From assembly GCA_040005555.1 (NCBI GenBank), contig JBDTYT010000002.1, positions 1-63,298 on the forward strand: a stretch of DNA of 63,298 nt, given 5' to 3'. This DNA is from Actinomycetota bacterium. GTDB lineage: Bacteria > Actinomycetota > UBA4738 > HRBIN12. Each line of letters begins with the position of its first letter. The first letter of the stretch is position 1. The notes below the pieces were generated by a model that was not told where the DNA came from, did not search any database, and saw nothing but the letters and a program-made list of their open reading frames with translations. Positions 5,772 to 18,165 of this stretch are shown here, in pieces. The position numbers and the translations under genes are program-made.

Positions 5772-7217
5772 CTAGTCGAGCGCCGCCATCACGTGCTTGA
5801 TCTGCGTGTAGTCCTCCAGCGAGTACATCGACATGTCCTTGCCGTACCCGCTCTCCTTGTACCCGCCGTGCGGCATCTCCGCGGTGATCATGAAGTGCGT
5901 ATTGATCCACACCGCGCCGAACTGCAGACGCCGGGCGACCCGCAAGCCGCGGGCGCCGTCCTTCGTCCATACCGACGACGCGAGCCCGTACACGACGTCG
6001 TTCGCCCACGTCACGGCCTCGTCCTCATCGCTGAACCGCTGCACCGAGATGACCGGACCGAAGACCTCCTGCTGGACGATCTCGGACTTCTGGTCGACGT
6101 CGGCGACCACCGTGGGCTTGTAGTAGTAGCCCTTGCCCTTCACGTCGATCGCCTCACCACCGGTGAGGACCTTCCCGTACTCCTGCGCGCGGTCGACGAA
6201 GCCCGCCACGCTGTCACGCTGTCGGGCCGAGACGAGCGGTCCCATCTCGACCGACTCGTCCTCGAGCGAGCCGACCTTGATCGACTCGACGGCCGGGACC
6301 AGCTCGGAGAGCAGCTCGTCGTATACGCCGGAGCCGGCCACGACGCGACAGGACGCCGTGCAGTCCTGGCCGGTGTTCGTGTACCCGGCGAACTTCAGCG
6401 TCTCCACGAGCTTGCCGATGTCGGCGTCGTCGAACACCACGACCGGAGCCTTGCCCCCGAGCTCGAGATGCACCCGCTTCACGGTCTCGGCTCCGGCCGC
6501 CGCGATGAGCTTGCCGGTGGACGTGTCCCCCGTCACCGAGACGAGCCGGACAGCCGGGTGTCGGACCAGTTGGTCGCCGACCACCGAGCCGCGCCCGGTG
6601 ATCACGTTGATGACTCCGGGCGGGAAGATGTCCGCCGACAGCTCAGCCAGACGCAGCGTCGACAGCGGCGTGATCTCGGCCGGCTTGATGATCGAGGTGT
6701 TGCCGGCGGCGAGCGCGGGGCCGAGCTTCCAGATCGCCATCATGAGCGGGTAGTTCCAGGGGCAGATGCCGGCCGTGACCCCGAGGGGCTCGCGCCGGAT
6801 CATGCTCGTGAAGCCCCGCTCGTACTCGCCGCTGGACTTGCCCTCCTGCACCCGGGCCGCGCCGGCGAAGAACCGAAGGTTGTCGGTGATGAACGGGATA
6901 TCTGCGGAGGCGACCGAGATCGGTTTGCCGACGTCGATCGACTCCAGGCGGGCGAGCTCGTCCGCGTCGGCGTCCATCGCGTCGGCGAGCTTCAGCATCA
7001 TCGCCGAGCGCTCCTTCGGCGGTGTGTCGAACCAGATCTCGTCGTAGGCCTTCTGGGCCGCCGCGACCGCGCGGTCGGCGTCGTCCCTCGTCCCGACCTG
7101 AACCTGGGCGACGGCCTCCTCGCTCGCCGGGTTGATGTCGGGTTCCGTCTCACCGGTCGTCGAGTCGATCCACTCGCCGCCGATGAACTGCTGGTAGGTC
7201 TTCACCGCGGTGGCCAA
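5772..7217 (-). CDS. Aldehyde dehydrogenase, gamma-aminobutyraldehyde/betaine-aldehyde dehydrogenase-like
   Basis: 481-aa ORF. Motifs ELGGKAP and GQDCTASCR. The N-terminus (YQQFIGGEWIDSTTGETEPDINPASEE) is typical of aminoaldehyde dehydrogenases. Confidence 0.85.
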   Translation of the reverse strand: MATAVKTYQQFIGGEWIDSTTGETEPDINPASEEAVAQVQVGTRDDADRAVAAAQKAYDEIWFDTPPKERSAMMLKLADAMDADADELARLESIDVGKPISVASADIPFITDNLRFFAGAARVQEGKSSGEYERGFTSMIRREPLGVTAGICPWNYPLMMAIWKLGPALAAGNTSIIKPAEITPLSTLRLAELSADIFPPGVINVITGRGSVVGDQLVRHPAVRLVSVTGDTSTGKLIAAAGAETVKRVHLELGGKAPVVVFDDADIGKLVETLKFAGYTNTGQDCTASCRVVAGSGVYDELLSELVPAVESIKVGSLEDESVEMGPLVSARQRDSVAGFVDRAQEYGKVLTGGEAIDVKGKGYYYKPTVVADVDQKSEIVQQEVFGPVISVQRFSDEDEAVTWANDVVYGLASSVWTKDGARGLRVARRLQFGAVWINTHFMITAEMPHGGYKESGYGKDMSMYSLEDYTQIKHVMAALD

Positions 7218-7298
7218 GCCGACCTCCTTCTGCGTGGACCCGAACCCGGGTCGGGGATGTGAACGCTTCGAGCGCTTCCAGTATGCCCAAAGGAGGGG

Positions 7299-8897
7299 TC
7301 AAGGGGCTACTCGACGTTCCGGCGACCCCCGGGCCCCGTATTCGCCGGACCGTCCGTCCGGCTCAGCTTCCAGGAGCTGCCTCGCGCGCAGCGCCAGCCA
7401 GAACTCCATGCGATCGAAGCTCGAGGACAGGTCACGGCCCGTCAGCTCCTCGACCTTGCGCATCCGGTAGCGCAGCGTGTGACGGTGCACGTAGAGCTCG
7501 GCGGCGGCGGACTCCCATCGCGCGTTGTGCTGGAGGAAGGCGAGAAGCGACGCCTGGAGTTCGCCGCCATGGTCGCGGTCGTAGGTGTCGAGCGGCGCGA
7601 GCAGCGAATCGGCGAAGGCCCGCAGCGCGCCCGGGTCCGCCATCGACAGCAGCAGCCGGTAGGAGCCGAGATCTTCGAACCCCGCCGAGCCCCACCCCTC
7701 CAGCCGGCACACCTGCAGCGCGTAGGAGGCCTCGCGCAGGCTGCGGCCCACCTCGTGGGCGACCGCCGGCGATCCGGCGCCGGCGCGCACCTCGGTCCCG
7801 CCGAGGCGCTCGGCGACGGCCTTCCGCAGCTCGTCGATGTCGAGCCCGTGATCGGCGGGCAGGAGTGCGTGGATCCCGCCCTCGTGCCGCGAGATGAGGT
7901 ACGCCCCCGAGGTTCGCGAGAGGTGATCCTCGGCCGCGTACGCGAGTTCCTCGGACGCCTCGCCTTCGAGCGAGACGACCATGACACGCGCGTCCTTCGC
8001 GAACCCGAACCGGGTCAGCCCCCGGACCGCCTCCGCCGCCGACAGCGAGCCGCTCCCGAGCGTGTCGAAGAGATCGCCCTGCAGCCGGCGCTCGGCGTCG
8101 GCCACGGCGCGCGACTTCGCGAGCTCGATCGCGAACAGGGACAGCGCGTGGCCCGCGACGATCCGATCGATCTGCGTGAGCGCCTCGGCCTTGCCCACCA
8201 CGAGGAACGCCTCGACGCGTCCCTTCGCACCCACGGGTTGGATCCACATGTTGTGGCCCTCGTCGACGAGCGTGAGGCTGAACCCCGTCCCCTCGGGACG
8301 CGAGCGCTGGAGCTCGTCCCAGACGCGCTCCGCCCGTTCCTCGGCGGCAGGCGCCGTGGCCGCGAGCGGGATCCCGTGCAGATCGAGGAGCATCGCCCAC
8401 CCTCCGCTGACCCTCGCGAGCGAGGCCGCGATCCCCTCGACACCGTCGCCGTCCAGGACGGCACGGGTGAGCGCGTGCTCGGCATCGACGGCGCGCTGGA
8501 GGCCTTCGTACTGCTCGGCGAGCAGCCTCGTGAACACGGCCTCGGTGATCGCGATGAACGGGACCGGGTAGGGCACCTCGAACAACGGGAACCTCGCGTG
8601 CTCCGCCGCCGTGACGAGCGCTTTCGGCACGCGCCGGTGCGAGAACCCCGACCCGAATCCCAGGCCCGCCAGCCCGGCGTCCGCGAGCCGGTGTACGTAC
8701 GCCCGCTGCTTCGCTGGCGTCGAACCCACGCCCGCGCCCGTCGTGAGCAACAGCTCGCCGCCTTTCAGCCACGGCGTCGGGTCCTCGAGCTCGCTGCTGT
8801 GCACCCAGCGCACGGGCCGGTCCGCGGCCTCCCCTCCAGCCAGCAACCGGAGCGCGAGCCCCGGGACCGAGAGGATGTCGCGCACGGAAAGGGCCAT
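7299..8897 (-). CDS. PucR family transcriptional regulator
   Basis: Track ORF 7299..9350 was trimmed to ATG 8897 (MALSVRDILSVPGLALRLLAG...). The N-terminal region resembles a purine-catabolism regulator. C-terminal PucR-type HTH: LYVHRHTLRYRMRKVEELTGRDL. Confidence 0.8.
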   Translation of the reverse strand: MALSVRDILSVPGLALRLLAGGEAADRPVRWVHSSELEDPTPWLKGGELLLTTGAGVGSTPAKQRAYVHRLADAGLAGLGFGSGFSHRRVPKALVTAAEHARFPLFEVPYPVPFIAITEAVFTRLLAEQYEGLQRAVDAEHALTRAVLDGDGVEGIAASLARVSGGWAMLLDLHGIPLAATAPAAEERAERVWDELQRSRPEGTGFSLTLVDEGHNMWIQPVGAKGRVEAFLVVGKAEALTQIDRIVAGHALSLFAIELAKSRAVADAERRLQGDLFDTLGSGSLSAAEAVRGLTRFGFAKDARVMVVSLEGEASEELAYAAEDHLSRTSGAYLISRHEGGIHALLPADHGLDIDELRKAVAERLGGTEVRAGAGSPAVAHEVGRSLREASYALQVCRLEGWGSAGFEDLGSYRLLLSMADPGALRAFADSLLAPLDTYDRDHGGELQASLLAFLQHNARWESAAAELYVHRHTLRYRMRKVEELTGRDLSSSFDRMEFWLALRARQLLEAEPDGRSGEYGARGSPERRVAP

Positions 8898-8905
8898 TGA
8901 CCCGA

Positions 8906-8922
8906 TTGTACGGCTCGTACAA
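8906..8922. promoter_or_regulatory. Perfect inverted repeat TTGTAC-N5-GTACAA in the pucR/gabT divergent region (candidate operator)
   Basis: ttgtac (8906-8911), ggctc, gtacaa (8917-8922). An extra GTACAA half-site lies at 8969-8974. The repeat sits between divergent starts at 8897 and 9084. Confidence 0.3.
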
Positions 8923-9083
8923 ATGAAGCCTCCACCGCGGAGCCCGGACGCAGGAGACTGGACGGAAGGTACAAACGCCTTCGCGCGACTTGGTCCGGCG
9001 ACCGCGTGACGGCGCGGTTGCGTGCGCGGACACTCGGGTGCAGCCTGGGGGCAGCGGTCGCCCTCGGCACCGAAGGAGGCAAC

Positions 9084-10418
9084 GTGGACATCCCGCAGGA
9101 GCGCAAGGTCCTCACCGAGATCCCCGGTCCGAAGTCGCGCGAGTGGTTCGAGCGGCGCGCCTCGGCGGTCCCTCAAGGCGTCGCGAACATCCATCCGATC
9201 GTCACCGCGCGCGCGTCGGGCGCGATCATCGAAGACGTCGACGGCAACCGTCTCATCGATCTCGCCACCGGCATCTCGGTCCTGAACGTCGGACACACAG
9301 CGCCCGAGGTCGTCGCCGCCGCGCAGCGACAACTCGAGCTCGACACGCATTCATGCTTCCACGTGACGGCCAACGAGCCGTATATCGAGCTCGCGGAACG
9401 GCTCAACGCGCTCGCGCCGGGCGATGCCGCGAAGAAGACGATGTTCGCGAACTCGGGGGCCGAGGCCGTCGAGAACGCGGTGAAGATCGCTCGCAAGGCG
9501 ACCGGTCGACAGGCCGTCGTGACGTTCGACCACGCGTTCCACGGTCGCACCTTGCTCGCGATGTCGCTCACGGCGAAGGTCATGCCGTACAAGCAGGGCA
9601 TGGGCCCCTTCGCGCCCGAGATCTACCGTCTGCCCTTCGCGTACCCGTACCGCTGGCCGAGCGGCCCCGACGCGTGTGCACGTGAGGCCCTGGCCTACGC
9701 CACCGAGGAGATGCACAAGCACATCGGCGAGGAGAACATCGCCGCGGTGATCGTCGAGCCGATCCAGGGCGAGGGAGGGTTCGTCGTCCCCGCGCCGGGG
9801 TTCCTGAAGGGCCTCGCCGATTTCTGCGGGGCGAACGGCATCGTGTTCATCGCCGATGAGATCCAAAGCGGCATGGGCCGGGCCGGCCGCTGGTTCGCCA
9901 TCGAGGACGAGGGCGTGGTGCCGGACCTCATCACGAGCGCGAAGTCCCTCGGCGGCGGTCTCCCGATCAGCGCCATCACCGGCCGCGCCGAGCTGATGGA
10001 CGCTGTGCACGTCGGCGGTCTCGGCGGCACCTACGGCGGCAACCCAGTCGCCGCCGCCGCCGCGCTCGCCGTCGTGGACCTCATCGAGCGCGAGGGGCTG
10101 CTCGAGCGCTCGCGCGCGCTCGGCGCGAGGATCATGACGGCGTTGCGCGACATGCAGGGCCGGCACCCGGTGATCGGCGATGTCCGCGGCCGCGGCATGA
10201 TGACGGCGATCGAGCTCGTCAAGGACCGCGCCACGAAGGAACCGATCGACGGCCCGACCGGGAACGCGATCGTGAAGCGGTGCCTCGAGAACGGCGTGGT
10301 GATCATCAAGGCGGGCACCTTCGACAACGTGATCCGCCTGCTCCCGCCCCTCACGATCGACGAGGCGCTGCTGGAGGAGGGCCTCGGCGTGCTCGACGAG
10401 GCGCTGGCTGCGGGGTAG
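9084..10418 (+). CDS. gabT: 4-aminobutyrate--2-oxoglutarate aminotransferase (class III PLP aminotransferase)
   Basis: Trimmed to GTG 9084, preceded by GGAGG. Sequence: VDIPQERKVLTEIPGPKSREWFERR..., FANSGAEAVENAVKIAR, ADEIQSGMGRAGRWFA, SAKSLGGGLP (PLP lysine). Confidence 0.9.
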   Translation: MDIPQERKVLTEIPGPKSREWFERRASAVPQGVANIHPIVTARASGAIIEDVDGNRLIDLATGISVLNVGHTAPEVVAAAQRQLELDTHSCFHVTANEPYIELAERLNALAPGDAAKKTMFANSGAEAVENAVKIARKATGRQAVVTFDHAFHGRTLLAMSLTAKVMPYKQGMGPFAPEIYRLPFAYPYRWPSGPDACAREALAYATEEMHKHIGEENIAAVIVEPIQGEGGFVVPAPGFLKGLADFCGANGIVFIADEIQSGMGRAGRWFAIEDEGVVPDLITSAKSLGGGLPISAITGRAELMDAVHVGGLGGTYGGNPVAAAAALAVVDLIEREGLLERSRALGARIMTALRDMQGRHPVIGDVRGRGMMTAIELVKDRATKEPIDGPTGNAIVKRCLENGVVIIKAGTFDNVIRLLPPLTIDEALLEEGLGVLDEALAAG

Positions 10419-10462
10419 ACCCACGCGCCGGGCCGGGGTACCCGGCTTGCTACCTTCCCTTG

Positions 10463-11755
10463 ATGGAGACCCCGCCCCCGCCGCTGCCGACGCGCGGCTC
10501 GCGGGCTCGAGGGGCCGTCCGCAAGGTCGCCGTCGACCTCTCGCCGCTTCGAGCGTCGCGCGACTTCCGCCGGCTGTGGTTCGGGCTCCTCGTCTCCGAG
10601 TTCGGGTACCAGTTCACGGTCGTCGCCACGCTCGTGCAGGTGTTCCGGCTCACGGGATCCGCGGCCGCGGTGGGACTCACCGGGCTCGTCGGCTTCGCCG
10701 GGCTCGTCGTCGGCACGCTCATCGCGAGCGCCTTCGTGGACGCGTACGACCGGCGCAAGACCCTCATCATCGCGCAGGTCGGGTTCATGATGGCCTCGGG
10801 CACGTTGCTGTTCGGGGCGGTGGCCGGACATCCTCCGCTCGGCCTCATCTACGGCGCTGTCGCGCTCACGGCCGGGCTCTCCTCCATCGACTCGCCCACA
10901 CGTTCGGCGATGACACCGAGGTTGGTCGGACTCGAGCTGTTGCCTTCGGCGCTCGCGCTGAACCAGGTCGTGTGGAACGGGACGGCGCTCGCGGGACCGG
11001 CGTTGGCGGGCGTCGTGATCGCCCAGCGGAACGGGCTGCAGTGGGCGTACGCGATCGACCTCATCACGTACGTCGGCATGCTCGTGGCGGCGCTCGGCAT
11101 ACGCCCCGTCCTCCCCGAGGTGGACGAGCACACGAAGACGGGCTGGCGCGCGGTCCGGGAGGGATTCGCGTACCTCAAGGGCCGGCGCGTTCTGCAGTCG
11201 ACGTTCGCGATCGACGTCGTCGCGATGGTGTTCGGCATGCCTCGCGCGCTGTTCCCCATCCTCATCGTCGCCCAGTTCCATCGCGGTCCGGCGGTCCTCG
11301 GGCTCTTGTTCGCCGCGCCTGCGTTCGGCGCGTTCATCGGAGCGCTCACGGGGGGATGGGTGGGACGCGTGCAGCATCAAGGCCGCGCCGTCATTTGTGC
11401 CGTGGTGGTGTGGGGCGCCGGCATCGCGGCCTTCGGGCTCGTCGGCGCGAACCTGTGGCTCGGGCTGTTCCTGCTCGCGGTGGCGGGAGCTGCCGACGTG
11501 ATCTCGGCGGTGTTTCGGTCGACGATCCTGCAGCTCGCGGTGCCGGATTCGCTGCGAGGCCGGCTGTCGGGGATCCACATCCTCGTCGTGACGGGCGGGC
11601 CGCGGCTCGGCGACCTCGAGGCCGGGCTCGTTGCACAGGCGTTCTCGCCGACCGTCTCAGTGGTGTCCGGCGGCGTGTTGTGCATCCTCGGTGCGGGCGC
11701 GCTCGCACTGCTCGTACCGGCGTTCCGCAGGTACCACGCCGGTGGAACGGTCTGA
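10463..11755 (+). CDS. MFS transporter (EntS/enterobactin-exporter-like family)
   Basis: Trimmed to ATG 10463. Sequence: FRRLWFGLLVSEFGYQFTVVATLVQVFRLTGS.... About 12 hydrophobic segments. MFS loop motif DAYDRRKTLI. Confidence 0.8.
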   Translation: METPPPPLPTRGSRARGAVRKVAVDLSPLRASRDFRRLWFGLLVSEFGYQFTVVATLVQVFRLTGSAAAVGLTGLVGFAGLVVGTLIASAFVDAYDRRKTLIIAQVGFMMASGTLLFGAVAGHPPLGLIYGAVALTAGLSSIDSPTRSAMTPRLVGLELLPSALALNQVVWNGTALAGPALAGVVIAQRNGLQWAYAIDLITYVGMLVAALGIRPVLPEVDEHTKTGWRAVREGFAYLKGRRVLQSTFAIDVVAMVFGMPRALFPILIVAQFHRGPAVLGLLFAAPAFGAFIGALTGGWVGRVQHQGRAVICAVVVWGAGIAAFGLVGANLWLGLFLLAVAGAADVISAVFRSTILQLAVPDSLRGRLSGIHILVVTGGPRLGDLEAGLVAQAFSPTVSVVSGGVLCILGAGALALLVPAFRRYHAGGTV

Positions 11756-11769
11756 CCACCCTCCCGTCC

Positions 11770-11790
11770 ACGAGACGACGTCCGTCTCGT
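11770..11790 (+). terminator. Hairpin 15 nt after the MFS stop (8-bp stem, 5-nt loop); possible terminator without a clear U-tract
   Basis: acgagacg (11770-11777), acgtc, cgtctcgt (11783-11790). Confidence 0.3.
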
Positions 11791-11879
11791 CCAGGCAATT
11801 CCCTGATTGGGCGATCGGAATCGTCTTTCAGCCGCATCCCCGCGGTCCGAGCGCGCGAGCACGTCGATGAGCTCCGTCT

Positions 11880-12251
11880 ATGCGGGAGTTTGAATTCGAT
11901 CGCCTGGTCGACGCGTTCCGCGCGAAGTCCCCGGACGAGGGTCTCGACGTCGGCAGCGGGTCCGGTCGAGTCACCCGGCGTGGCGAGCGATGGACGCTCG
12001 CTCGATAGTCCAGGAGACCGACCGGGATGGCGTCTGGGGCCTACGTCGGAGTCACTTATGGAAGGTCGGGCGTCATCGGTGCCCTCGGTGCTCGGGTCCT
12101 TGAGCCGCTCACCGCCGACCAGGAGCGTTTTCTCAGATCACTTGGTCTTGCCCTCGGATACATCCTGCCTAGAGAGGCAGGGTTTGGGCCGCTCTTTGAC
12201 CCAGAAACGTTGTTGCTCGCCTCCAGATTCGAGCCGCCCACCGATGACTGA
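11880..12251 (+). pseudogene. Small ORF interrupted by one in-frame TAG (12006-12008); C-terminal half resembles the end of a GAF-type domain
   Basis: ATG 11880 ... CGA TAG (12006) ... ATG 12027 ... TGA 12251, all in one frame. Translation: MREFEFDRLVDAFRAKSPDEGLDVGSGSGRVTRRGERWTLAR*SRRPTGMASGAYVGVTYGRSGVIGALGARVLEPLTADQERFLRSLGLALGYIL.... There are many more A/T-ending codons than in neighbouring genes. Confidence 0.25.
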
Positions 12252-12400
12252 AGCGATCCGTCGTTTCTGGAAGCCATAAGGCTTGCGGGCCGGCCGACGA
12301 ACACAGCGATGTTCCAACGGCCGGAGACAGCTCGTTGATATTCGATGACTCGGCCGACCAACCGCTTGACCCCGGCGGCGGCTTGACATATGAGCAAGCC

Positions 12401-14092
12401 ATGTCCCGGCCGGTCGGCATCGTCGAGCTCCGGGTGCTCGACGGCCCGAACCTGTTCTTCCCACGGCCCGCGATCAAGCTGACCCTCGCCGCGCCGGCGT
12501 GGCTCGAGATGTCCGAGGAGCGCTTCGCTCGAGCGCTCGAACGCGCGGGCTCGAGCGGACGCGCCGGGCGCCCCTGGTCCGAGCAACGACGCCGCGCGGT
12601 CGGTCGCCTCGGGACGATCATCACGCGGCAGCTCGCCGCCGCGAGCGACGTGCGGCTCGCGGTGCGCGCCCGACCCGGGCCCGAGCCGGACCAGATCGTG
12701 GTCGCGTTCCCGTGGCGCCACCGAGCCGCAGCCGAAGCGCTCGCTCGCCAGGTCCCGCGGACGCTCGAGGCGCTCCTGGACCTGCGACGCTCGCTCGACA
12801 AGCTCGTCCAGGAGGCGGGGGCCAAGCTCGCGAGGGTCAAGCCCGGCGAGGAGCCGAGCGTCCCCGAGCCGTCGATCCCGGTGATCTCGGTCACCGGGAC
12901 CAACGGGAAGACCACGACCGTGCGCCTGCTCGCGCACATCGCGCGCATCGCGGGCCTGCATGTCGCCTACTCCTCGACCGACGGCGTGTACGTCGACGGC
13001 GAGCTCGTCGAGGAAGGCGACTATTCGGGGTTCGGCGGTGCCGCCACGGCGCTCGCGGCCGAGCCCGACATCGCGGTGCTCGAGACCGCTCGCGGTGGGA
13101 TCTTGCTGCGCGGGATCGGCGTGTCGCACAACGACGTCGCGGTCGTCACCAACGTGTCCGAGGACCACCTCGGCCTCCACGGCATCGACACGATCGACCA
13201 GCTGGCCGAGGTGAAAGCCACGGTGACGAAGATCACCCGCCCTGAGGGATGGGACGTGCTGAACGCGGACGACCCGCGCGTGCTGGCGATGCGTCGCGGC
13301 GCGACGGGGCAGGCGTGGCTCTGCTCACTCCAGGCAGGTCATCCGGCGGTGCGCGACGTCGTGGCCGACGGTGGCCGGGGGATGACGGTGCTCGACGGGT
13401 GGATGACGATGCTCGACGGCTCGGATGCGCGTCCGATCGTGCCGCTCGTCGACGTCCCGGTCACCATCGCGGGGATCTCGAGCCACAACGTGTCGAACGC
13501 GATGCAAGCAGCGGCGGCCGCGCTCGGCGCCGGTCTGCCCGAACGGGCGGTCGTGAGGGGTTTGCGGACCTTCGTCTTGGATCCGGAGGGCAACCCGGGA
13601 CGCGCCAACCTGTTCATCATCGACGGTCGCATCGTGATCATCGACTACGCTCACAACGAGGCGGGGATGACTGGCCTCATCGAGCTCTGCCACGGGCTCC
13701 GCCGCGCCGGCCGTGAGGTCTGGCTGGCGATCTGCACGGCCGGCGACCGAACCGACAAGATCCTCCACGATTTCGCGTATCGAGCGGCGCGCGGCGCGGA
13801 CCACATCGCCGTCGCCGAACTGCTGCCGTACCTGCGCGGCCGAGATCGCGCCGACGTCGTCGACCGGCTCGGCGCCGGAGCGCGCGACGGCGGGGCCGAG
13901 GAGATCGACGTGTTCCCCGACGAGCTCGCCGCCCTCAAGCACATGCTTCGGAGCTCGCGTCGGGGCGACGTCGTCGCGGTGACGGCGCTCGCCATGCGGT
14001 TCGAGATCTTCGCGTGGCTCGAGGACGCCGGAGCCGCCCGACCGACGCCCGCCAGGATCCGGGCGATCGTCCGGAGCGTCCGCGGCTCGTAG
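12401..14092 (+). CDS. Cyanophycin-synthetase-like protein with CphA N domain and Mur-ligase (M) domain only; no ATP-grasp domain
   Basis: ATG 12401. The N-terminus VELRVLDGPNLFFPRPAIKLTL parallels CphA1 VQANVFRGPNYWSYEPCIRLLV. About 165 aa in, the Mur-ligase P-loop VTGTNGKTTT follows directly. The rest is colinear with the CphA1 M domain: ETARGGILLRG, VVTNVSEDHLGLHGIDTIDQLAEVK, LNADDP, IIDYAHNEAG, TAGDR. Confidence 0.8.
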   Translation: MSRPVGIVELRVLDGPNLFFPRPAIKLTLAAPAWLEMSEERFARALERAGSSGRAGRPWSEQRRRAVGRLGTIITRQLAAASDVRLAVRARPGPEPDQIVVAFPWRHRAAAEALARQVPRTLEALLDLRRSLDKLVQEAGAKLARVKPGEEPSVPEPSIPVISVTGTNGKTTTVRLLAHIARIAGLHVAYSSTDGVYVDGELVEEGDYSGFGGAATALAAEPDIAVLETARGGILLRGIGVSHNDVAVVTNVSEDHLGLHGIDTIDQLAEVKATVTKITRPEGWDVLNADDPRVLAMRRGATGQAWLCSLQAGHPAVRDVVADGGRGMTVLDGWMTMLDGSDARPIVPLVDVPVTIAGISSHNVSNAMQAAAAALGAGLPERAVVRGLRTFVLDPEGNPGRANLFIIDGRIVIIDYAHNEAGMTGLIELCHGLRRAGREVWLAICTAGDRTDKILHDFAYRAARGADHIAVAELLPYLRGRDRADVVDRLGAGARDGGAEEIDVFPDELAALKHMLRSSRRGDVVAVTALAMRFEIFAWLEDAGAARPTPARIRAIVRSVRGS

Positions 14093-14102
14093 CGACACGC
14101 GC

Positions 14103-14450
14103 TCAGGGACGAAGCCGAGCGTGCTCGACGCAGCGCACGGCCCAGGGGATGGCCTCGAGGCGTTCCTCCCCGATCGGTTCGCCGCCGACGTCGCATACCC
14201 CGTAGGTGCCCTCGTCGAGCTTCTCGAGCGCCCGCTCGACGTCTCGGAGCTTGGCCTGAAGATGCTTGGCCGCATCCACCTGCGTGATCCGTTCGACGGC
14301 TTGCGACGTGCCCTCGCCGACCCGCTTGCCGAACGAGACCGACGCCATCGGGTCGCGCGGCGTCGCGGTGATCTCGCCGATCTCGGCGCGGAGGGTGTCG
14401 CGCTCGGTCTCGAGCACACGCCGGACCTCCTCGAGGTCCACGGTCGTCAC
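14103..14450 (-). CDS. TraR/DksA-family zinc-finger-like protein with a degenerate metal site
   Basis: GTG 14450 overlaps the cphA1 TGA (GTGA). It has a coiled-coil-like N-terminus and a C-terminal YGVCDVGGEPIGEERLEAIPWAVRCVEH. The positions of the canonical CxxC-x17-CxxC read C..G-x17-C..H. Confidence 0.7.
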   Translation of the reverse strand: MTTVDLEEVRRVLETERDTLRAEIGEITATPRDPMASVSFGKRVGEGTSQAVERITQVDAAKHLQAKLRDVERALEKLDEGTYGVCDVGGEPIGEERLEAIPWAVRCVEHARLRP

Positions 14451-17296
14451 AGGACCATGAGGTCGGGATCGCCGCCCACGGCCTCGAGCTTGCGACCGTC
14501 GCCGTCCTCGGACGCCGCCAGCACGTTCGGCGACGCGACCCCTCGTCGCGCCTCGATCTCGCGGTACACCTCGGTGGCGTAGTCGACGCACAGCACGACG
14601 AGGTCGCCGGGGCGCGAGCGATCGAGCGCCTTGCGGGTTGCCTCCATCTCGTCGACGACGACCTCGACGCTGCCGACGCGAGCGCCGGCGGACATGCCCT
14701 CGTACACGCCCTCGAGGATCAGGGCTGCGGTCTCGCCCCTCGTGCGGCCGCGCGGGTTGCGGTCCTCGCGGATGATGAGGTCGTCGAAGTACCGAGCGGC
14801 CACGCGCCCGAGCTCGCGCATGTCATCGTCGCGGCGGTCACCCGCGGTCGCCACCACCGCCAGCCGCAGGTTCGCCGTCCACGACGCCTCGCCGGGCCGC
14901 CCGCCGGCCGGCGCATCGGCGGTCATGCGCTCGACGAAATCGCCCAGCCTCTCGAGCCCGGCGGCGTTGTGCGCGTAGTCGATGATCACCTTCACGCCCT
15001 CCAGGTCGAACAGGTTCAACCGGCCCGGGGCCTGGTAGATCGAGGTGCTGAAGCTCCGGAGTCCCTGGCGGATGTCGTGCAGATGCGCGCCGGCGGCGTG
15101 TGCGGCGGCCGCGGCGGCCATCGCGTTCTGCACCATCATGCGCGCGCGGCCCTCGAACGTCGCCGGCAGGGTGTGCACCCACGCGATCGGCATGGTGCGG
15201 CGGCCTTCCTTGATCACCATCATCTCGCCGAGCGGGCCCTTCTCGAGCACGACGGCCTTCCGACCGCGGCGGATCCACCGCTCCACGAACTCGTGCTTGT
15301 CCTGCATGGTGAACAAGATCACCGAGCCGCTGCACGCTCGGCGCATCTCCAGCACGAGCGGGTCATCGGCGTTCAACACCGCGAAACCGCTGCGGGGCAC
15401 GGCCTCCACGACGACCTGCTTCACCGCCGCGAGCTGCTCGATCGTGTCGATGCCCTTGAGCCCGAGGTGGTCGCCGGTCACGTTCGTCACCACGGCGACG
15501 TCGTTGCGTCCGTAGCCGAGGCCCTCGCGCAAGATCCCGCCACGCGCGACCTCGAACACGGCGAAGTCCACCCGCGGGTTCTGCAGCACCATCTGCGCAG
15601 ACTTCGGTCCGCTCGCGTCGATGCGTTTCACGAGACGGTCGTCGATGTACACGCCGTCCGTGGAGGTCATGCCGACCTCGTTGCCCATGAGCTTGAAGAT
15701 GTGCGAGATCATCCGCACGGTCGTCGTCTTCCCGTTCGAGCCGGTGACGGCGACGATCGGGATGCGCGACGGAGTAGTCGGCGGGAAGAGCCCGTCGATC
15801 ACGTGCTTCGCAACGTACTGCGGCTCGCCCTCGGTGGGATGCGTGTGCATCCGGAAGCCGGGGGCGGCGTTCACCTCGACGATCGCGCCGCCGGTCTCGC
15901 GTACCGGCTGGGTGATGTCGGGCGCGAGGAAGTCGATCCCCGCGACGTCGAGCCCGACCACGCGAGCGGCCTCCTCGGCGATCTCGACGTTCTCCTCGTG
16001 CGCTTCCCACGTGCGATCGATCGAGATGCCGCCCGTCGACATGTTGCCGGTGGCCGCCAGCTTCACGAACTCGCCCTTCGGCACGACATCGTCGAGTCCG
16101 TGGCCCTGCTTCTTCACCAGCTCCTCGGCCGCTTCGTCGATCTTGATCTTCGTGAGGACCTTCTCGTGTCCGATGCCCCGGCGCGGGTCGCGGTTCGTGA
16201 TCTCGACCAGCTGCCGGACCGTGTGCTTCGCGTCGCCCTCGACGCGCGCCGGGACGCGCTCGGCCACCGCGACCATCCGGCCCCCCACGACGAGCACTCG
16301 ATAGTCGTTGCCGGTGACGAAGGACTCCACGACCACGATGCCGCGTCGCGCCTCGAGCACGGCCCGCTTGAACCCGGTGCGGATCGTCCGCTCGGTCTTC
16401 AGGTCCAGACCCACGCCCCGGCCGTGGTTCGCGTCGAGCGGCTTCGTCACCACGGGGAAGCCGATGCGCCTCGCGGCGGTGACGGCCTCGTCCTCGGTGC
16501 GGACCACCTCGCTGCGAGGCACCGGCAGTCCCGCGGCCGCCAGCAGCTGGTTCGTGAGCTTCTTGTCCCCCGCGATGTCGACCGCGAGCGCCGACGTCTT
16601 CGAGGTGATCGTGGCTCGCACGCGCTGTTGATACTTCCCCTGGCCGAGCTGCAGGAGGGACTGCTCGTTCAGGCGCATCCACGGGATGTCCCGGGTCGCA
16701 GCCTCGTCGATGATGGCCTGGGTGGACGGACCGAACGCTCGGCGCTCGGCGAGCCGGATCAACCGTTCGAGCTCGGCAGGGAAGTCGAGGGTCGGGTCCT
16801 TCTTCACGAGGTGGTTCACGAGCCGGACGGCCAGGCGCCCCGCCTCGAGGCCCACCTGCTCCTCCCAGTAGCCGTAGATCACGTTGTACCTGCCCGTCGT
16901 GCCGGCGCCTCGGGTCTTGCCGCGATACACGTGCGCGCCGGACTCGCGCTGGAGCTCGAGCGAAACGTGCTCGGCGATATGACCGGCCCAGGTTCCGTCC
17001 TCGAGGCGCTCGCGGAACCCCCCGCGCTTGCCGAGGGAACACGAGTGCTCGCCGACCCCGGGGAGGAGTTTCAGGAGCCCCGCGTTGAACCCCTTGATCT
17101 GGTTCGACGGCCATTCCTCGAGCGAACCGAGATCGACGAGCAACCGGATGCACGGCTCGTAGGACCAGTAGTTCGGACCGCGGAAGACGTTCGCCTGCAC
17201 GATCGTGAGGTCCGGGCGTGCGGGCGGCTTCTTCGAGGCCGGCTCCCGCTTCGCACGCTCGCGATCGGCGCGCGTCCGGGTCCGGCCGGCGCTCAC
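14447..17296 (-). CDS. cphA: Cyanophycin synthetase CphA1 (N + ATP-grasp + Mur-ligase domains)
   Basis: Trimmed to GTG 17296, which overlaps the cphB TGA and has AGGAGG 7 nt upstream. N domain: FRGPNYWSYEPCIRLLVDLG. ATP-grasp region: DKKLTNQLLAAAGLPVP...VVTKPLDANHGRGV...GIDFL. M domain: VTGSNGKTTT...DYAHNAAG. Confidence 0.92.
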   Translation of the reverse strand: MSAGRTRTRADRERAKREPASKKPPARPDLTIVQANVFRGPNYWSYEPCIRLLVDLGSLEEWPSNQIKGFNAGLLKLLPGVGEHSCSLGKRGGFRERLEDGTWAGHIAEHVSLELQRESGAHVYRGKTRGAGTTGRYNVIYGYWEEQVGLEAGRLAVRLVNHLVKKDPTLDFPAELERLIRLAERRAFGPSTQAIIDEAATRDIPWMRLNEQSLLQLGQGKYQQRVRATITSKTSALAVDIAGDKKLTNQLLAAAGLPVPRSEVVRTEDEAVTAARRIGFPVVTKPLDANHGRGVGLDLKTERTIRTGFKRAVLEARRGIVVVESFVTGNDYRVLVVGGRMVAVAERVPARVEGDAKHTVRQLVEITNRDPRRGIGHEKVLTKIKIDEAAEELVKKQGHGLDDVVPKGEFVKLAATGNMSTGGISIDRTWEAHEENVEIAEEAARVVGLDVAGIDFLAPDITQPVRETGGAIVEVNAAPGFRMHTHPTEGEPQYVAKHVIDGLFPPTTPSRIPIVAVTGSNGKTTTVRMISHIFKLMGNEVGMTSTDGVYIDDRLVKRIDASGPKSAQMVLQNPRVDFAVFEVARGGILREGLGYGRNDVAVVTNVTGDHLGLKGIDTIEQLAAVKQVVVEAVPRSGFAVLNADDPLVLEMRRACSGSVILFTMQDKHEFVERWIRRGRKAVVLEKGPLGEMMVIKEGRRTMPIAWVHTLPATFEGRARMMVQNAMAAAAAAHAAGAHLHDIRQGLRSFSTSIYQAPGRLNLFDLEGVKVIIDYAHNAAGLERLGDFVERMTADAPAGGRPGEASWTANLRLAVVATAGDRRDDDMRELGRVAARYFDDLIIREDRNPRGRTRGETAALILEGVYEGMSAGARVGSVEVVVDEMEATRKALDRSRPGDLVVLCVDYATEVYREIEARRGVASPNVLAASEDGDGRKLEAVGGDPDLMVL

Positions 17297-18165
17297 TCGG
17301 AGGCCTCCTGCTCGAGCGCCCGGCGCCCCCCCGCACCCAAGAGGACGCGCGCGCGGAGGTCGAACCAGTACCCCGCCGGCAAGGAGTGCAGCACGACCCC
17401 GGACACCATCAACGGCCGGTAGCCCTTCCCCTCGTACGCGTTCGTCCGCACGCTGGAGCCGTCGACGATCGTGACGGCGCCGCGGCCGAGCACCTCGAGC
17501 GTCTGGTCCGCGTACACGATCGCGCACGTGTCCTCGTCCAAACCGAGACCGAGCAGGGCGGGCGACTGCGCGATGACGGCCGACAGCCGTCCGATCCGGT
17601 TGCGCTGCTCGAAGTGCTGGTCGACGACGATCCCCTGCAAGATCCCGAGCCCTGCCGAGAGCTGCGCCATGCGGTTCTTCGGCGAGTCGCCCGAGGCCCC
17701 GAAGGCCATCATGTGCGTGGCCATCGCGCTCGCGCCCGCCGAGGTCCCCGCGAGCACCGCGCCACGGTCGTGCGCGAGCAAGATCGCTCGTCCGAGGCGG
17801 GTTCCGGAGACCACGGAGGACAGCCGCAGTTGGTTGCCTCCGGTGAGGAACACGCCCGTCGCGTCGGTGAGCACCGATGCCACGCCGGCGTCGTCCGCCT
17901 CCTCTCGCTCGACGGGCCGCAGCCCGCTCACCCGGCCGATCCCGAGGCCGAGGAACAGGGTCCTGTACACCTCGGTGGCCTCGTCGCCGAGCGAGGAGGC
18001 CGTGGAGACCACCACCACGTGCCCGTCGGCGCCGCCCGCGAAGCTCGCGAAGCGGGCGAGGATGATCTTCGACTTGAACCGGTCCTCGGCGCCGCCGATC
18101 AACATCACCGGGCCCGCACCGGGGAGGCTTCGCTTGTCCGAGAGCTTCGTGGTTCGCCCGACCAT
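17293..18165 (-). CDS. cphB: Cyanophycinase (peptidase S51)
   Basis: 290 aa. Motifs: VMLIGGAED, FLTGGNQLRL, and the nucleophile motif LAGTSAGASAM. Confidence 0.9.
   Translation of the reverse strand: MVGRTTKLSDKRSLPGAGPVMLIGGAEDRFKSKIILARFASFAGGADGHVVVVSTASSLGDEATEVYRTLFLGLGIGRVSGLRPVEREEADDAGVASVLTDATGVFLTGGNQLRLSSVVSGTRLGRAILLAHDRGAVLAGTSAGASAMATHMMAFGASGDSPKNRMAQLSAGLGILQGIVVDQHFEQRNRIGRLSAVIAQSPALLGLGLDEDTCAIVYADQTLEVLGRGAVTIVDGSSVRTNAYEGKGYRPLMVSGVVLHSLPAGYWFDLRARVLLGAGGRRALEQEASE

Follow-up and report, generated by a model that had tools for sequence, protein, structure and literature searches.

The stretch of DNA analysed here (the window) comprises all 63,298 nucleotides (nt) of positions 1 to 63,298 of contig JBDTYT010000002.1 from an Actinomycetota bacterium (assembly GCA_040005555.1). 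At positions 12401 to 14092 it carries a gene for a protein of 563 amino acids (aa) that joins the N domain and the Mur-ligase-like M domain of CphA1, the synthetase of the nitrogen-storage polymer cyanophycin, and that has no counterpart of the ATP-grasp (G) domain which lies between them in CphA1. The protein is referred to here as the N+M protein. Window coordinates are used throughout; the window has a G+C content of ∼70% and its closest relatives are uncultured soil Actinomycetota. The gene and the parts of its product are:

12401–14092, + strand: gene for the N+M protein, 563 aa; CphA-type N domain followed by a Mur-type ligase, free of ATP-grasp
12413–12847, + strand: N domain (residues 5–149), homologue of the CphA1/CphA2 N domain, non-catalytic
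12890–13522, + strand: Mcore, the ATP-binding Mur ligase middle domain (residues 164–374; Pfam PF08245)
12893–12916, + strand: P-loop TGTNGKTT (residues 165–172), invariant in the family and in CphA1; K170 corresponds to K499 of TeCphA1
13163–13168, + strand: D255-H256, aligned with D585/H586 of SuCphA1; invariant in the N+M family
13622–13984, + strand: Mlid, the Mur ligase C-terminal domain (residues 408–528; Pfam PF02875)

The open reading frame (ORF) spans 12335 to 14092 on the + strand, and the ATG at 12401 gives the 563-aa product. Since 24 aligned homologues (69–93% identity) begin at the position that matches this ATG, 12401 was taken as the real start of the gene. Both the length of the protein and its start are kept across the aligned homologues.

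The M domain is a complete Mur-type ligase (residues ∼155–528, aligned to residues 484–853 of SuCphA1). In Pfam, Mur_ligase_M matched residues 164–374 with 74.3 bits (cutoff 24), and the only other match was Mur_ligase_C at residues 408–528 (40.6 bits, cutoff 28.4). With PF08245 and PF02875 both above their gathering scores, the protein belongs to the Mur ligase superfamily. The CphA1 model of NCBIfam, TIGR02068, was matched from model position 477 to 847 only (E = 3e-106); the resulting 356.3 bits fall short of the equivalog cutoff, which asks for at least 850 bits over N, G and M. None of the NCBIfam models for MurC, MurD, MurE, MurF, FolC or the pseudomurein ligases came near its cutoff (TIGR01085 for murE, 92.9 bits against 257.3; TIGR01143, 55 against 288.6; TIGR01499, 46.2 against 162.65). 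A BLASTP alignment to the neighbouring CphA1 was colinear over 416 columns, with 41% identity and E = 2e-67, and contained every motif that the initial annotation of this locus had quoted in proposing that the two M domains are colinear. Identity to the solved cyanobacterial CphA1s is ∼32–34% over the M domain. The predicted full-length structure has a predicted local distance difference test score (pLDDT) of 77.6, with residues 261–302 poorly modelled, and a Foldseek search with this model returned CphA1 structures as the best matches (E ∼1e-25), followed by MurE (∼1e-16).

No ATP-grasp family of Pfam matched the N+M protein, while the neighbouring CphA1 matched six in the same search, and the N domain leads directly to the P-loop of the M domain at residue 165. 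The N+M protein cannot extend an aspartate (Asp) backbone, because it is without the ATP-grasp G domain. An architecture of N and M without G, and the missing ATP-grasp counterpart, had both been claimed from the sequence; Pfam, the confinement of the TIGR02068 match and the hhalign and Foldseek comparisons of the N-terminal region given below all agree with this.

Assignment of the N domain was less direct. The similarity between the N-terminal segments of the N+M protein and the neighbouring CphA1, which the initial annotation had aligned by eye, amounts in BLASTP to 9/21 identities (E = 0.095) and is not significant alone. PF18921 (Cyanophycin_syn) did not match residues 1–187 even at E ≤ 10, and Pfam and NCBIfam searches with these 187 residues gave nothing useful, the only match being DUF2126 at E = 0.072. 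Since plain sequence searches were insufficient, profile–profile and structure comparisons were used. A profile of 30 N-terminal family sequences, distant representatives included, was aligned by hhalign to a profile of 14 CphA1 N domains. This gave a probability of 98.1% (E = 1.3e-13) over 145 columns, pairing residues 5–149 with CphA1 N positions 7–166. An AlphaFold (AF2) model of residues 1–157 alone had a pLDDT of 89.6 and a predicted template modelling (TM) score of 0.86. When this model was compared with the PDB by Foldseek, the top 15 matches were all CphA1 or CphA2, with TM scores of 0.50–0.65 over ∼150 columns, and later matches fell to ∼0.25. On these profile and model comparisons, residues 5–149 are assigned as a CphA-type N domain of the non-catalytic kind, although PF18921 misses the domain. 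The homology seen by eye is thus real, even though the similarity then quoted could not by itself establish it. A cryptic ATP-grasp in the N-terminal ∼150 residues was also considered and was ruled out by the hhalign and Foldseek matches to CphA N domains.

In about 80% of CphA1s, a Cx19HxxEH metallopeptidase motif in the N domain makes primers (PMC9262961). This site is lost in the N+M protein. The profile alignment has a gap where the Cys should be, and R69, T72 and I73 stand in place of H79, E82 and H83 of SuCphA1. Absence of the motif alone does not exclude membership in CphA1, since about 17–20% of true CphA1s lack it. The N domain of CphA1 tethers the polymer, and its hydrophobic N-terminal hairpin loop packs on the M domain (PMC9262961). 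The corresponding hairpin, GPNLYFPRP, is the best-conserved stretch of the N domain of the N+M protein. Because this loop contacts the M domain, N and M together are a plausible self-contained unit. The mean net charge of the N domain is +7.6 in the N+M clade against −2.4 in the linked CphA1s; distant members of the family lie between −20 and +7, and the superfamily as a whole between about −20 and +15. We considered that a basic N domain might betray binding to bare poly-Asp and dropped this idea as evidence, since the charge is not family-wide.

The residues on which catalysis by the CphA1 M domain depends are retained. K170 and T171 of the P-loop correspond to K499 and T500 of TeCphA1, T193 and E228 to the Mg ligands T522 and E558, and R401 and H418 to R731 and H748, which make the Mlid contacts to ATP; D255/H256 correspond to D585/H586 of SuCphA1. 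All of these, and K272, are invariant in the N+M family. The roles of these residues in CphA1 are from PMC9427784 (K499 among them) and PMC9262961, and mutation of D585/H586 to Ala leaves the SuCphA1 M domain inactive (PMC9262961). The P-loop Lys, the Mg ligands, the D-H pair and the Mlid Arg and His of a CphA1 M domain are all in place, and the ligase motifs that had been described as intact are so across the family. Mlid contains H418 (in DYAHN), GDR(T)D at residues 448–452 and YLRGR at 477–481.

A column-by-column alignment of M domains was made from three groups: 18 close and distant members of the family, 11 proteins of another N+M clade and a varied set of 17 CphA1s. Nearly all positions at least 90% conserved in the CphA1 M domains were common to the N+M family, and no position in the three-group alignment was conserved within both groups yet different between them. 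The shared set includes K170, E228, D255/H256, K272, N288/D290/D291, N366, R401, H418, G448-D449-R450, R479/R481 and E508. Since almost every CphA1-conserved M residue is shared, the suggestion in the initial annotation that a different amino acid is added finds little support.

The same residues bear on whether the protein is an enzyme at all. It might be a non-enzymatic accessory that retains the ligase fold and, for example, binds cyanophycin, associates with granules or interacts with CphA1; polymer tethering by the N domain of CphA1 and the position of the gene beside cphA1 would suit such a role, and CphA2 provides a precedent, in that CphA-family M domains can turn purely structural (PMC10273328). 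We consider this improbable, since the ATP, Mg and catalytic residues are invariant across the family, including the D-H pair that is essential in the SuCphA1 M domain, and since M is of full length here, unlike the truncated M of CphA2.

Relatives of the N+M protein number in the thousands in the protein database, and the best 120 are all about 552–592 aa long and 70–93% identical. A scan with two clade-specific peptide patterns, one genome per species, found a full-length relative encoded in 257 species-representative genomes, and the wider family must be present in at least that many. When 1.84 billion cluster representatives were searched exhaustively with a profile, 1,418 proteins were returned at E ≤ 1e-30. 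Among these, many of 520–600 aa matched end to end, while CphA1s, and further proteins of ∼570 aa, matched over M only. In a neighbour-joining tree of M domains, the N+M proteins fell into clusters apart from CphA1, as a phylogeny proposed earlier was meant to reveal; the tree is crude, having no support values and no outgroup, as neither the window nor the 90 loci contain a Mur ligase that could serve as one, and is unrooted in effect. The ratio of non-synonymous to synonymous substitution rates (dN/dS) between pairs of N+M orthologues was 0.12–0.32. From this distribution, the separate clustering and the dN/dS values we conclude that the gene did not arise from cphA1 by recent duplication and truncation and is not decaying, and the original impression that it is not a decayed copy holds. 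Its location adjoining cphA1, and the 41% identity to the M domain of that gene's product, are what a decaying duplicate that had recently lost G might show. This identity is far too low for a recent copy, and length and start are conserved, so that such a duplicate, or an artefact of assembly or ORF calling, is refuted by the comparative data and retains a practically negligible probability. The gene encodes an intact, widely conserved and unstudied enzyme that has the anchoring and arginine-adding parts of cyanophycin synthetase only.

Downstream, the N+M gene meets a convergent operon:

14103–14591, − strand: DksA/TraR-type zinc-finger gene (Pfam PF01258), last gene of the convergent cphB-cphA1 operon
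14447–17527, − strand: cphA1, full-length N+G+M synthetase (TIGR02068, 1164 bits against a cutoff of 850; Pfam Cyanophycin_syn, ATP-grasp and Mur_ligase_M/C)
17293–18165, − strand: cphB, cyanophycinase (TIGR02069, 238.9 bits against a cutoff of 126.6; Pfam Peptidase_S51)

The stop codon of the dksA-like ORF is at 14103, leaving a 10-nt gap, so the tail-to-tail arrangement reported in the initial annotation is correct. By comparison with the related locus L003, the true start of the dksA-like gene is probably near 14450, overlapping the cphA1 stop. The cphA1 ORF of 1026 aa is ∼60–100 aa longer at its N terminus than its homologues; TIGR02068 is matched from residue 109 onwards, and translation therefore probably starts downstream of 17527.

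Synteny was scored by tblastn with the window proteins in 83 loci. Of the 50 loci with at least 9 kb of downstream flank, 38 have cphA1 (as a G-domain match) no more than 10 kb downstream and in convergent orientation in every case; cphB accompanies it in all but one of them. When partial cphA1 matches at contig ends are counted, 57 of 68 informative loci are linked. The most distant members (59–63% identity; Dormibacterota and Chloroflexi bins) have cphA1 tail-to-tail, without the MFS and aminotransferase genes that lie upstream in the window, and in the cultured Nocardioides sp. MAHUQ-72 the relative WP_379180620.1, 49% identical over its full length, is tail-to-tail with cphA1-cphB. The N+M protein tree, labelled by context, shows that tail-to-tail linkage to cphA1-cphB was the starting condition of the clade and is still the commonest one. 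The expected linkage to cphA1 thus held for most loci, and it is not universal, as one derived subclade has no cphA1 within 10 kb.

The linked CphA1s are complete. Their P-loop, E.ARGG, PGR.N and GDRR motifs were present in 55 of 55, two stricter patterns in 54 and 52 of the 55, and Cx19HxxEH, the motif that gives CphA1 its independence of primers, in the N domains of 49 of 49; the CphA1 of the window also carries it (C...HIAEH). Compensation by the N+M protein for a defective CphA1 was considered and rejected, given that the motifs of the linked CphA1s are intact in nearly all cases. Because the partner is intact, the role of the N+M protein must be additive.

We propose that the N+M protein is an active, stand-alone, ATP-dependent amide ligase that would bind an Asp-based acceptor derived from cyanophycin and add an amino acid to it, most probably arginine (Arg), and we put the probability of this at roughly one half. 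The proposal is built on the architecture, the homology of both domains, the retention of catalytic residues, purifying selection and the synteny with cphA1-cphB, and from these we infer which acceptor and which amino acid are used, and to what physiological end. The enzyme would work alongside a complete CphA1, as an evolutionary sibling of the N+M module of CphA1. By analogy with the CphA1 M domain and the Mur ligases, the non-catalytic N domain and the Mcore cleft would hold an Asp-containing acceptor, likeliest a cyanophycin chain or fragment with un-arginylated Asp. ATP bound at the P-loop would phosphorylate a free carboxylate to give an acyl-phosphate, which the α-amino group of an amino acid held by Mlid (Arg being the most probable) would attack; an isopeptide bond would form, with release of ADP and phosphate. 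Candidate purposes are arginylation of Asp left bare by CphA1, the making of short β-Asp-Arg primers, reuse of degradation products, and modification of the polymer.

Several observations weigh against this proposal. The completeness of the linked CphA1s leaves no obvious gap for the enzyme to fill, and the gene, which converges on the cph operon, does not share a transcript with it. Ten loci of a derived subclade (L001, L007, L008, L010, L018, L019, L023, L024, L033 and L037; dN/dS 0.13–0.32), and L056 elsewhere in the tree, retain the N+M gene under purifying selection and lack cphA1 within 10 kb. A few M-domain positions that face the substrate also depart from CphA1. R566 of SuCphA1 (in GGILR) is Leu in the N+M family, with an Arg one position later; GDRRD of CphA1 is GDRTD in the N+M protein; and the family has an extra conserved Tyr before the common RGR motif. 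E607 of SuCphA1, which touches polymer bound on the N domain (PMC9262961), is replaced by Lys or Arg. The region of the RGR motif is one that we take to correspond to the DNPR motif of MurE. Judged from the alignment, these differences are hints about the binding groove and no evidence of a different substrate.

Genes on the other side provide further points of this kind. An MFS_3 gene lies on the same strand and close upstream in 46 of the 64 loci whose upstream sequence extends over 3 kb or more, mostly at gaps of under about 150 nt and in a minority at 320–500 nt, and closer relatives have a gabT-like aminotransferase, aldehyde dehydrogenases and a PucR-type regulator further upstream. The proximity of MFS_3 and gabT-like genes on the same strand could point to a function with a small molecule. 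Outside the clade, the one long context examined for proteins matching DUF4938 (L087) has no cph genes, paralogues at L089 and L090 follow a gene for an Rce1-like CPBP protease with no cph genes nearby, and the paralogue at L088 lies in an unrelated context, also with no cph genes nearby.

The protein may instead be an active Mur-type ligase for a substrate other than cyanophycin, and might build or modify a small amino-acid conjugate or another polycarboxylate that would be moved by the adjacent MFS_3 transporter; the vicinity of cph genes would then reflect a shared nitrogen and amino-acid island. The upstream genes, the maintenance of the N+M gene in the subclade without cphA1 and the paralogue groups in unrelated contexts are in its favour, and the wide range of N-domain charge across the superfamily suggests different acceptors. 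We regard it as a serious alternative and still an unlikely one, since linkage to the MFS and aminotransferase genes is confined to the closer clade whereas linkage to cphA1-cphB spans the whole clade, including Nocardioides and the Dormibacterota bins. Furthermore, the M domain is nearer to CphA1 than to any other Mur ligase and shares nearly all of its conserved residues, and the N domain is found elsewhere in CphA1 and CphA2 only.

The wider relatives differ from the N+M family in their N-terminal regions. Some of the other ∼570-aa proteins match DUF4938 (PF16292), a model that spans the N-terminal region and the start of the ligase; one related protein, P0179, does so with 102 bits. PF16292 gave no match to the N+M protein, which is thus not a member of DUF4938. 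In the N-terminal region, the DUF4938 group has nothing but the first hairpin in common with the family (GPNLY..P; 30 columns in hhalign, E = 8e-11), and the named members encountered come from Chloroflexi and Herpetosiphonaceae metagenome-assembled genomes. The proteins at L087–L090, of ∼550–570 aa, have an N-terminal region with the GPNL hairpin followed by a CphA-like M domain, form separate and uncharacterised groups, and are of types often labelled 'cyanophycin synthetase' by JGI. On these sequence comparisons, the layout of an N-like region with M is a broader scaffold, of which only the clade with this gene is tied to cphA1.

A broader version of our proposal is that the N+M proteins form a distinct, old class of enzymes in cyanophycin biology, stand-alone side-chain ligases with a task beyond the reach of CphA1: they might start primers with free Asp and Arg as building blocks, put Arg on bare Asp inside the chain, or attach a second kind of amino acid so that the polymer is modified. 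We offer this doubtfully and think it rather unlikely. As part of the same reading, the N+M layout might be the original scaffold, akin to a Mur ligase, from which CphA1 arose by insertion of an ATP-grasp domain; the separate clustering of the N+M and CphA1 M domains and the breadth of the N-like+M superfamily (1,418 cluster representatives) leave room for this.

The genes upstream of the N+M gene in the window are:

10280–11755, + strand: MFS_3-type transporter gene, on the same strand as the N+M gene (Pfam MFS_3/MFS_1 in L001–L003)
9006–10418, + strand: class-III (gabT-like) aminotransferase
about 7299–9350, − strand: PucR-family regulator
5772–7217, − strand: aldehyde dehydrogenase

Together, positions 5772–11755 form a catabolic cluster of the γ-aminobutyrate (GABA) type that is syntenic in closer relatives; with cphBA, it looks like an island for nitrogen storage and arginine/GABA catabolism. 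Between the MFS stop and the N+M start lies a 645-nt spacer (11756–12400), which in the closest relative, L003 (91% identical protein), is 13 nt. Its G+C fraction is 0.63, against about 0.70 around it. The ORFs of the spacer gave no Pfam match; the spacer itself matched no Rfam family and no repeat, and its sequence recurs neither in the rest of the window nor in 90 loci. No promoter-like site was found in 11700–14700. The spacer may be a decayed insertion, which would part the N+M gene from the upstream operon in this genome.

On the downstream side, a DksA/TraR-type C4 zinc-finger gene closes the cphB-cphA1 operon in many related loci, including L002 and L003, and overlaps the cphA1 stop in L003. 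It is missing in the more distant clade, where cphA1 directly abuts the N+M gene. Its presence hints that cyanophycin may be coupled in its regulation to the stringent response. In L003, a Ser/Thr protein kinase gene (10607–12532) lies between the N+M gene and the dksA-like/cphA1 operon; there is none at that place in the window. The 10-locus subclade keeps the pair of MFS and ligase genes, and has neither cphA1 nor cphB within 10 kb downstream. At L001, the place of the cph genes is taken by a 524-aa protein without a Pfam match and an ABC transporter.

On the current view, cyanophycin is synthesised by a single enzyme, CphA1, and CphA2, in which G is kept, is the one reduced form so far known. 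The N+M architecture was not found described in the literature on CphA1, CphA2 and cyanophycin gene bioinformatics, a search of incomplete coverage and hence no proof of absence. For DUF4938, the literature search turned up only an unrelated secretion screen. None of the curated Pfam or NCBIfam models covers the N+M protein as a family. Its relatives are labelled 'Mur ligase family protein' by NCBI and 'cyanophycin synthetase' by JGI; because domain databases miss the N domain and the JGI label includes N+M proteins, counts of cyanophycin producers in metagenomes may be inflated.

We think it probable that the N+M protein takes part in cyanophycin metabolism as a third, hitherto undescribed player. 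The polymer yields polyaspartate and dipeptides, and modification of its side chains is a stated goal. A conserved, catalytically intact protein of this kind next to cphA1-cphB, occurring in Actinomycetota and in phyla close to them, would enlarge a biotechnologically interesting pathway by one enzyme, offer a natural, separable arginine-adding module for studies of mechanism and for engineering, and bear on how the three-domain CphA1 was assembled in evolution. Nocardioides sp. MAHUQ-72, as a cultured carrier, puts the question within direct experimental reach.

Set beside known systems, the N+M protein shares with the Mur ligases (MurE and relatives, the pseudomurein ligases and FolC) the order of an acceptor-binding N-terminal domain, a P-loop ATPase and an amino-acid-binding C-terminal domain; unlike theirs, its N-terminal domain is CphA-type and not UDP-MurNAc-binding. 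The DUF4938 Mur ligase family proteins (PF16292, about 570 aa), which are uncharacterised, have a similar layout of ∼180 N-terminal aa followed by Mur_ligase_M and Mur_ligase_C, but beyond the hairpin their N-terminal region is not alignable, and they form a separate M-domain cluster. CphA2 (PDB 7TA5, 8FXH) resembles the N+M protein in being a reduced CphA with a non-catalytic N domain (N-domain TM 0.50–0.56). It consists of N, G and a truncated, inactive M (PMC10273328), whereas the N+M protein has lost G and kept a full M with its catalytic residues. It is thus not a CphA2, and the loss is reciprocal, as was first noticed. With CphA1 (TIGR02068; PDB 7LG5, 7LGQ, 7TXV, 7WAE) it has in common a homologous N-domain fold, a complete MurE-like M domain with all ATP, Mg and catalytic residues, and a place beside cphA1-cphB; it differs in having neither the ATP-grasp G domain nor the Cx19HxxEH site, and in forming a separate cluster in the crude M-domain tree. 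The N+M protein is a new architectural variant within the CphA/Mur-ligase family, and not a categorically new system.

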